Below are positions 22,067 through 24,650 of a DNA stretch of 64,000 nt, piece after piece (the first letter of the stretch is position 1; every line of letters starts with the position of its first letter). The stretch covers positions 99,044,947 to 99,108,946 of the forward strand of contig NC_081359.1 of the NCBI RefSeq assembly GCF_030684315.1, written 5' to 3'. Made by a program: the position numbers and the translations under genes. Under the pieces are notes generated by a model that was not told the DNA's origin, made no database searches, and worked only from the letters and a program-made list of their open reading frames with translations. The DNA comes from Stegostoma tigrinum. Lineage: Eukaryota.

Positions 22067-22145
22067 CAAGACCAGCAGCAAGAACTCGAGCATCGCCGAC
22101 CTGAGGCTCAAAGCCCGTAAGCACGCCGAGGCGCTGGGCCTCTGA
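21891..22145 (+). CDS. SHOX: SHOX terminal coding exon ([14 protein letters not shown]...PPPPFGL...poly-Ala...OAR motif [25 protein letters not shown])
   Basis: Acceptor tctttctatcggcgtag|. Contains the OAR motif. TGA at 22143-22145. Spliced total is 283 aa. Confidence 0.96.
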
Positions 22146-24650
22146 CAATCAGCCGGGCCGGGGCCCCCGGAGTCCCGCCAGCACCACCCCCAGTGCCCAG
22201 CTGGGGCGCGGTGCCAAAGCTGCCCACTGCACAAGCTCCACCAGGTCCACTTCATGATGCACAGCCCGGACGCCGCCAGTGGCAGCAGCACCGTGCCAGG
22301 GGTTCAAGAGCACTTCTAAAACACCAAACAACCCAAGAATAAAACACACACGAACCTGCAATGCCCTTCCATCGGCCCCTCACCCACCCAACATCAACCC
22401 CAAAACTCTACCACAAAGAGGCATCTCAGTGCTAAAACAGGGTGATTGCCACTTTACCACCTCAACCAGAAAGACAACAGACACTACACCAAGGAGTACC
22501 GTCCACGTGGCTGACACCAGAGGGGAGAATGAACTTATAACTGGGGCGAAGCCCACACTTCCAGTTGCGCATCTCATATATGTGTACGCACGCCTCTGCA
22601 AAAGCGAATTTCGGTGCTGCATACGCACAGAGAGACTAAATACTTGCGAGATTTGCTGACAGATGGCCACCTTATTTGGGGGGAGAAAAAAAACAGGAGA
22701 GGACTTCACCCGACCTGAAGACTTTCCTCATCAACCTGTTAAGAAATGTTCACACGCTGCTCTGCAGCAGGTGGGACTTGAACCAATGTCTGCCAGCTCC
22801 AAGGTAGGGACACTGCCAATGTGCCACAAGAGCTCCCTGGGTCGAGCTTGAAGACTTGCCATCCCTGCTGTGCTACTCGATGGGCCTCAGATTTCAATAC
22901 CGCCCTCAAACTCTCCTAATTTCCTGATGGAAACTGACCGAGGTTAAAGGTCAAGGATGACGCCAAGATAGCCTGTCTGGTCTTGGTCACTATTTCAATA
23001 CCACGCTCTTCTCTCTCGGTCTCTATGTAGGTATGAATAGAAGTGAATGTAGACCTCACCGCACAACTTATCTGAAGGTGGCAGATATATCCCTTTCAAG
23101 TGCTGATGAACTACATAACAGAAAACACATACCACACATTTAAGAACAAATACAACTCCTGTGGACTTCATTAAGGATGTGGAATTCTGTAACCGTGTGC
23201 CCGATACTTAAAATGACAGAAGACTTAACTGGGTTCATTTTTCTTTCTCGAGACGCTATCACGTAGGAAACAGCAATAAATGATATCTACCACTCCCCCC
23301 CCCCCCCGCCAAACCCGCACCGACCTCTGCACCCCAGCCCCCTCGCACTCTCTCTCTCTTCGTTTCATGGACTGGAGACTTCCTGAAGAATTTTTAACTC
23401 GATTTCTGGATAGCTGTCTGCAGGCGACCGTTTATTGTTCCAGTCATTTTGCAATGTGGAACAATAAGAAACATACATACACACACATACACACGAAAAC
23501 AATGACAAGCAACCCTGACCGGGACTTTCGACCGATTTTTTAAACTATTGTTTACAATAAAGAGAAGGGAACGATCGGAGAAAGATGAAAGGATAAATAG
23601 CCTGCTGGCTTGCTAAATGAAATTAATAATAAAGAAAACCCTGTCTGAAGTAACAGGTACAGTGTAGGTTAGTCCTTCTCGTTGTTGGGATCCGATGGTA
23701 GAGGATAAAGTCTACACTATTTCCATGCTACAATGAAACAGTCTTGGAGTTACGGTGCGACGCATTTAACGGTGCAGTAAAGTGCAATACTGTATATAGC
23801 AGAAGTAGTTGTCTCGTAGAAACTAGAGAAAGGGCGATTATCTCGTCCTTGTGGGCACAAGGAACTGAGGAGTTGCCCATAGCATCGCCAAATTCACTAC
23901 CAGAGCTTTACAGGACAATGGAAGGACCTTAATGGACATTTTTGTTTGGGGTGGGCGGGGAGGGGGAGGAGTGCGTGCAGGGGGCGGGAGGGGATCGATT
24001 ATATGCCATAACTCTTGGAGCTAAGCTCGACAAGTTTGTCAGACACGACTTCCTACAGGTCAGTTTGAACGTAAAGTGTCATTAAGTCAACGCGCCATAA
24101 CCTGACACAACCAACAGGCCGCCATTGCTTCTGTTATTTGTCAGATTCCCTGCAGACGCAGATTCGCTGCACTGTTATAACCCAGCACATGAGCGATTTC
24201 TTTTTTTATTTATTTCTTGTACTTTAAAATTTTATAAATGTGATATATTTTATTATGTCGTGTGTAAATGTCACGTTGCTTTGCGTTTATTTTTATATTT
24301 TCAACCTTTGCTTTGCAAATTTCTGAATGAGACGTGTGATCTGTAATGTTAAATATAACAAATTGGAGTTTACAAAGAGAAAAAAATCATTTCAGGGATG
24401 CAGATAATTAATAATATTGAAACATCAACGACACACTCATTGTAAGTTTAATGCAGGTTAAAACAGATGGTACAGCAGACTGAAGAAATGTATTCGTTTT
24501 GTGATTATTTGCAAGCATGCCTTCACATTCTGATTTACAACAGTTCTATAACTTAGAGTCCAGAGTGTATTTTGTTGGATCACCCATATTATGAATGTAC
24601 AACTTGTACATGTGGAAATTGCAAATAAAATTTAAAATATTTGTACAACG
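22146..24650 (+). other. SHOX: Probable SHOX 3'UTR ending near the polyadenylation signal AATAAA at 24624-24629
   Basis: This AATAAA is preceded by several TGTA (CFIm-type) motifs at 24596-24613 and followed by a T-run near 24670. There is an AU-rich block at 24200-24350. Earlier AATAAA sites at 22338, 23275 and 23556 are possible alternatives. Confidence 0.6.
22730..22835 (-). mobile_element. tRNA-derived SINE head, antisense, in the 3'UTR
   Basis: The minus strand reads tggcacattgg (A box) ... ggttcaagtccc (B box). Confidence 0.6.

Follow-up and report, generated by a model that had tools for sequence, protein, structure and literature searches.

A candidate leaky stop codon of the UGA-CARYYA type behind the OAR motif of SHOX in Stegostoma tigrinum

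A five-exon SHOX gene in the window

The stretch of DNA analyzed here (the window) comprises 64,000 nucleotides of the Stegostoma tigrinum contig NC_081359.1. It contains a paired-type homeobox gene with the following parts:

11850-22145, + strand: SHOX, paired-type homeobox gene, five coding exons (tblastn)
11850..12092, + strand: first coding exon, ATG at 11850 (tblastn with SHOX-type proteins)
15450..15662, + strand: coding exon 2, start of the homeodomain (tblastn)
19065..19127, + strand: coding exon 3 (tblastn)
19982..20070, + strand: coding exon 4, which a contig from relative B connects to the last exon (tblastn and contig)
21891..22142, + strand: coding part of the last exon, 84 amino acids with a His tract, poly-Ala and OAR, ending KHAEALGL
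22077-22130, + strand: OAR motif (Pfam PF03826, E 1.1e-7)

The gene combines a paired-type homeodomain, a terminal OAR, and SHOX-type ends. Searching the 3.2-Gb genome with the last exon gave a single other match, a paralog ending in KHAAALGL like human SHOX2; since this sole other match carries the SHOX2-type end, we identify the window gene as SHOX. SHOX regulates skeletal growth in a dosage-sensitive manner, and its activity depends on the C-terminal OAR region (PMC4971310); that region is required for transactivation, and both OAR-less and UTR-spliced isoforms are known in human (PMC4971310, PMC3063249).

Several repeats accompany the gene. The poly-Ala of the last exon is encoded by a GCC repeat (22032-22065, 11 copies) that is longer than in database SHOX proteins. 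Within the last intron, the acceptor region recurs as degenerate direct repeats (21328-21890), among them two acceptor-like copies (…CGTAG, about 21494 and 21729) that precede the real acceptor at 21890; these might act as decoys or as alternative splice sites. The 3′ UTR carries an inverted copy (82%) of this intronic repeat at 23227-23248, 1.4 kb from the acceptor region. A purine-rich repeat with a 24-nt period precedes SHOX at 8250-9120, and a 53-nt tandem array of 4.6 copies follows the gene at 56627-56871.

A CARYYA hexamer and an open frame follow the SHOX stop codon

A first-pass annotation had proposed that the SHOX stop is read through into the frame behind it. The features of this segment, with their state in two relatives (B and C, described below), are as follows:

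22143..22151, + strand: stop TGA (22143-45) and CAATCA (22146-51), a readthrough context of the CARYYA type that B and C share unaltered
22146..22316, + strand: 57-codon in-frame extension (translation)
22146..22224, + strand: conserved block 1, unchanged in B, with one synonymous change in C at 22199, in the hairpin loop
22181..22214, + strand: predicted stable hairpin starting 36 nt past the stop, with the same stem in B and C
22224..22268, + strand: C-(A/T)-(C/G) triplet tract (codons 27-41), the source of the GC3 signal, holding a 12-nt insertion in C
22253..22300, + strand: conserved block 2, with no listed change in B or C
22317..22319, + strand: second stop TAA, kept in B and C
22338..22343, + strand: AATAAA, 18 nt past the second stop, without listed change in either relative; may serve as a proximal poly(A) signal

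The descriptive part of the proposal was reproduced exactly: TGA-CAATCA is followed by 57 open codons up to the TAA at 22317-19 with the peptide as given, a recount of GC at the three codon positions agreed (41/31/47 of 57), and composition switches after the TAA, with GC falling from 0.68 to 0.37 at 22320. The open frame as such carries little meaning, since it is also open in 78% of dinucleotide shuffles (and in 36% of mononucleotide shuffles). A GC3-GC2 difference of at least 16 is rare, both in shuffles of the extension (p = 0.0007 and 0.0019) and elsewhere in the 64 kb (9 of 3327 frame-windows). This periodicity is local; codons 27-41, the triplet tract, have GC1/2/3 of 10/3/14 of 15, and codons 1-26 have no periodicity (20/19/21 of 26, p = 0.31).

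The chance of finding CARYYA directly after a stop is about 0.002. The bases before the SHOX stop are T and C, compared with the A-A favored in plants, and the following CAATCA places the site outside the UGA-CUAG readthrough class. Recoding of the UGA as in selenoproteins was considered and rejected; Rfam gave no match at E <= 1 in 21800-25500, a SECIS element included. The encoded tail is hydrophilic (GRAVY -0.73), and a single-sequence AlphaFold model of it is poor (mean pLDDT 51). A flexible, hydrophilic tail, poorly structured in this weak model, fits these predictions better than a hydrophobic degron does.

The SHOX tail among other gene ends of the same genome

As controls we used 171 gene ends of OAR, forkhead, homeodomain, bHLH, and HMG genes from the same genome. 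In at least three of them (L209, L215, and L221) the end is an intron boundary and not a true stop, and the same may hold for others. The set comprised 112 of 137 loci plus 60 further stretches, with SHOX itself set aside; the loci dropped for partial or broken domains were 7 forkhead and 18 HMG loci. Tails of at least 57 codons follow 12/171 control ends, and the length of the SHOX tail is therefore matched among them. None of the 171 reaches its GC3-GC2 value of 16 (maximum 14, mean -0.2, sd 5.0), and its best 15-codon stretch scores 13, against a control maximum of 9 (n = 171). Only one control tail of 171 has a GC of at least 0.65, and the GC-matched comparison is thin, as just 12/171 reach 0.55. 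By a frame-specific Markov score, the SHOX tail is no outlier, 14 of 111 controls scoring equally high.

CARYYA follows the stop in none of the 75 TGA-ending controls and in 1/171 overall, and TGA-C occurs in 17/75. The sole CARYYA control is a Twist-like bHLH end (L249) with TAG-CAGCTA and a 3-codon tail. Among the other ends, a Hox-like one (L219) reads TGA-CTAG, likewise with a tail of 3 codons. A homeobox gene (L052) has 221 open codons past its stop at 69% GC, and a Sox gene (L113) has 176 behind TGA-C; GC3 bias is absent from the first 57 codons of both. AQP4 of the same genome retains its known TGA-CTAG signal with a 25-codon tail.

Stop, hexamer, frame, and second stop are retained in two relatives

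Eight of 24 sequencing runs were compared, and three of them cover the extension, from two organisms: relative B and relative C, the latter represented by two runs of one sample. None of the four runs of a further relative (D) spans the extension; one covers only 22509-22577, the other three and an additional RNA run gave no coverage, and this gap is no evidence of absence. The stop, hexamer, frame, and TAA are retained in 2/2 relatives with coverage. The frame preservation for which the annotation had proposed a check is seen in both, and neither has a frameshift inside the extension. The contig of relative B spans 21889-22620, and its loose end corresponds to 20043-20068, that is, to exon 4. 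Given this joint between exon 4 and the last exon, we infer that the segment derives from spliced mRNA, in which case the open frame to the second stop would sit inside the mature mRNA of relative B.

In relative B, the extension shows 7 substitutions and is free of indels, and the next 301 nt show 14 substitutions with 2 indels; the change rate of B in the extension is similar to that in the following UTR (7/174 versus 14/301, p = 0.82). Relative C has 10 substitutions and one 12-nt insertion, the only indel in the extension, followed by 9 or 10 small gap events (depending on the run) within 45 nt past the TAA, after which the sequences are unalignable. Two 30-nt loose ends of relative C show about 6 and 9 differences from the window, a biased, by-eye estimate of noncoding change.

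The 14 changed sites of the extension cluster in codons 27-36 and 52-56 (p = 0.0045), the latter being its most variable part, and the first 79 nt hold just one of them (p = 0.002); 42 of the 57 codons fall in the two blocks free of amino acid change. A synonymous bias, whose absence the annotation had named beforehand as a refuting condition, is not seen on these 14 sites: 11 changes are nonsynonymous and 3 synonymous, with a dN/dS of about 1.07 (0.68 for C alone, 1.76 for B alone). The segment is therefore under constraint, whether at the level of the protein or of the RNA or DNA, both being compatible with these two relatives.

No counterpart of the extension found among the distant homologs and databases searched

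We compared the stop region with 13 other SHOX/SHOX2 sequences, a biased sample obtained from an antisense-frame protein search in which the bases after the stop are inferred. CARYYA is absent after the stop in 13/13 of them. All 13 have TGA-C, versus 17/75 of the TGA-ending controls, and a weakly leaky context may, judging from these sequences, be old in the SHOX/SHOX2 family. Two of the 13 have forced stops at codons 14 and 31, and one SHOX-family protein is called through its TGA with a 12-residue tail. When SHOX 3′ frames were compared with the extension, the best scores were equaled by 2 and 4 of 200 shuffles, nonsignificant after correction for 16 comparisons. SHOX2 of the same genome reads TGA-T and stops after 3 codons, with neither motif nor tail. 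From these comparisons, the candidate readthrough tail appears restricted to the lineage of this genome, which we take, also from its three large homeobox clusters and one small unplaced one, to be that of cartilaginous fish.

A human SHOX stop-loss extension of about 48 residues, the kind of extension to which the annotation had likened the frame, was not found in the literature consulted, in a SHOX review, or in the supplementary portions covered of PMC12817085, PMC11502859, PMC11387191, and PMC12976096. For human SHOX2, the stop-loss frame (PMC11502859, Supplementary Data 1) has an 11-nt in-frame match to the extension (RQH) as well as CxxC and LHxL look-alikes, all identified by eye. A shared 11-mer of this kind turns up in 4.7% of random trials, and we therefore treat the likeness as a lead only. 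The human SHOX2 extension was suppressive in a reporter screen (PMC11502859).

Searches with the extension itself gave 4 candidate proteins, none of which scored (proteins of 101-2000 amino acids), and those with its in-phase antisense frame gave 1, which did not score either. The ESM Atlas yielded no usable match, Pfam yielded noise only, and in its own genome the extension matched itself only (next best E 1.7). Among 50%-representative proteins, the read-through last exon had 49 matches, all to the SHOX-like part except for one repetitive protein. Metagenome scans for the SHOX locus yielded 636 stretches, none confirmed, and 30/30 pattern matches were unrelated. The literature, searched largely outside subscription journals, yielded neither a report on SHOX readthrough nor one on a CARYYA gene in a vertebrate; the TOGA2 preprint names SHOX and readthrough in unrelated passages.

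A predicted hairpin in the extension and a possible poly(A) signal behind it

The annotation had described two hairpins after the stop. Folded alone, 22181-22214 is more stable than expected (z = -3.5) and is matched by 1/200 shuffles, in a region chosen post hoc; 22153-22170 is not (z = +1.1). Larger regions fold unremarkably (22143-22260, z = +0.45; 22143-22292, z = -0.42), and the stem is invariant among the relatives, which leaves no covariation to count. Of the control gene ends, 5/171 have such a poly(A)-type hexamer within 40 nt of their next stop. Six AATAAA hexamers and one ATTAAA occur in 22338-25685, which suggests, at the level of motifs, multiple poly(A) sites and a 3′ UTR of considerable length. 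The relative B contig has no intron inside the 57 codons or up to 22620 and extends about 1.3 kb beyond that point; the proximal AATAAA is thus not the sole transcript end.

Comparison with known readthrough systems

Verified vertebrate readthrough is rare and mostly of the UGA-CUAG type (PMC4132726, PMC5868278). In AQP4, OPRK1, OPRL1, MAPK10, and SACM1L, as in SHOX, a UGA-C stop with conserved adjacent nucleotides precedes an in-frame tail; unlike SHOX, these genes have CUAG (SACM1L, a stem-loop), high PhyloCSF scores, and tails shared with mammals (PMC4132726). The SHOX tail, in contrast, is seen in three organisms only, and AQP4-type tails are best conserved near the new C terminus, whereas codons 52-56 of SHOX are the most variable (PMC4132726). 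The TMV-type (type I) signal UAG-CARYYA has the same consensus hexamer directly 3′ of the stop; it is viral, mostly UAG, and serves an essential long protein, whereas SHOX has UGA in a chromosomal vertebrate gene and a short tail (PMC4132726). In an OPRL1 context, CARYYA (tested as CAAUUA) gave about 15% readthrough in a mammalian reporter, with UGA equal to UAG (PMC4132726).

The Arabidopsis eRF1-1 gene (AT5G47880) has the identical 9-mer, TGACAATCA, with moderate readthrough that depends on the +4C and an extension that is unconserved and inactive; the same 9-mer supports readthrough in plants and is weak in rabbit reticulocyte lysate (PMC5397192). The likeness to SHOX extends to a conserved hexamer, little amino acid constraint on the extension, and a next stop close to a poly(A) site, which for SHOX is only a possible one (PMC5397192). 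Unlike SHOX, eRF1-1 belongs to a plant, has an intron in its 3′ UTR, and takes part in an autoregulatory NMD circuit that has been tested (PMC5397192); in SHOX, no such intron is seen. Human VDRx resembles SHOX in being a transcription factor with a long (67-amino-acid), largely disordered tail beside a C-terminal functional domain, its frame kept in one clade only with a weak amino acid signal (PMC5868278). It differs in its UGA-CUAG signal and in having been demonstrated by reporter, immunoblotting, and ribosome profiling, whereas SHOX carries CARYYA and its function is a deduction (PMC5868278). VDRx has reduced transactivation compared with VDR (PMC5868278).

Readthrough and its alternatives

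We give about an even chance to programmed readthrough that is limited to this lineage and adds a loosely constrained tail, comparable to human VDRx. A UGA with CARYYA behind it is established in other systems to delay termination enough that a near-cognate tRNA can decode it; under this explanation, a few percent of ribosomes would read on, and SHOX would gain a 58-residue tail behind the OAR. The residue inserted at such a UGA is usually Trp, Cys, or Arg. Selection would preserve the leaky context, the adjacent 79 nt (signal and hairpin), and the frame, with the tail mostly disordered and loosely constrained. The place of the tail, 5 residues past the OAR, suggests reduced SHOX activity, as with VDRx; most likely the tail would weaken or destabilize the OAR transactivation end and so trim the dose of active SHOX, as VDRx does for VDR. 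The proposal of a readthrough-extended SHOX thus survives in part: the published 9-mer, the outlying position among controls, and the motif, frame, and TAA kept in two relatives speak for it, and the missing synonymous bias speaks against it, as do the count of just two relatives and the selection of the site out of a large survey. Leakage above background at the SHOX stop is, in our judgment, probable, and selection for that leakage somewhat better than an even bet; a sequence-specific function of the tail is doubtful.

The main rival explanation is an ordinary, conserved, GC-rich proximal 3′ UTR, acting as a DNA or RNA element (a protein or miRNA site, or an enhancer) in a last-exon island reaching 174 nt past the stop. 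In that case, the triplet signal and the 12-nt indel would stem from slippage in the CAC/CAG/CTC tract, CARYYA would be incidental, and leakage would be unselected. Such an element accommodates the dN/dS near 1, blocks that are invariant at synonymous sites as well, a best-conserved block without periodicity, and a periodicity confined to a 45-nt triplet tract in which slippage alone yields in-frame indels. At such GC, an open frame is expected by chance, and because the frame-2 ORF likewise ends, at 22340, any frame would stop shortly past the GC boundary. The coding part of the last exon, too, has few changes (2 in B and 3 in C), which indicates that the whole SHOX gene end changes slowly. 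An element of this kind, however, needs three coincidences: CARYYA (about 0.002), in-phase periodicity (about 0.002, 0/171 controls), and no inner frameshift, with indels crowding right behind the TAA and none shifting the frame before it. CpG observed/expected, moreover, falls from 1.19 to 0.5 at the TGA, and the extension is therefore no simple continuation of the CpG island. We regard such an element as a sizeable minority possibility.

A variant of the readthrough explanation would have readthrough serve the mRNA, termination at the TAA beside the AATAAA protecting or tuning the transcript against NMD, as in eRF1-1. It draws on the 9-mer shared with a gene whose extension is unconserved and inactive (PMC5397192), on the SHOX dN/dS near 1 and the AATAAA 18 nt past the TAA, and on the human SHOX 3′ UTR-spliced isoform, which likely escapes NMD (PMC3063249). 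We consider it improbable: with no intron up to 22620 in the relative B contig, readthrough would clear no exon junction complex there. Still less probable is an alternative in-frame 3′ splice site in the extension (exon 4 to 22173, 22182, or 22194) that would produce an OAR-less protein like human SHOXb. Five AG dinucleotides do end in phase 0 within the extension, and OAR-less SHOX isoforms exist in human (PMC4971310, PMC3063249); yet in-phase AGs follow from CAG and GAG codons, the tracts before them are GC rich with few T, the relative B contig has no such joint (contigs drop rare forms), and the conserved CARYYA would be left unexplained. The annotation had also offered an ancestral coding tail, which found no support, as ALGL is the shared end of SHOX-type and SHOX2-type proteins. 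A relic of such a tail, or a degenerate copy of coding DNA, might account for the coding-like GC pattern and for the RQH match and the CxxC and LHxL look-alikes in human SHOX2 (PMC11502859); we find it scarcely credible given the shared ALGL end, the lack of significant likeness to anything else in the genome, the frequency of the 11-mer match in random trials (4.7%), and the same-genome SHOX2 that stops after 3 codons. Duplication of the SHOX or SHOX2 last exon was tried as a source of the tail and rejected, with no significant likeness (p = 0.19-0.81).

Implications for SHOX in cartilaginous fishes

The most far-reaching form of the readthrough explanation holds that cartilaginous fishes make a second SHOX protein by way of a TMV-type UGA-CARYYA signal and a conserved hairpin. 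The 58-residue tail of that protein, in which two blocks are invariant, would be a selected regulator of the OAR in fin-skeleton development that was lost from, or never present in, other vertebrates. We think this unlikely. Should readthrough fail, the segment would remain an unusually conserved proximal UTR element. If true, SHOX would be a chromosomal vertebrate gene, and a vertebrate homeobox factor, with readthrough driven by CARYYA, for which we found no precedent in the literature. Such a case would widen the motif set for readthrough screens and would suggest that mammal-based annotation overlooks lineage-specific readthrough in sharks. A leaky stop behind the OAR would also be an undescribed route to tune SHOX dose, in a lineage relevant to the evolution of fins and limbs.
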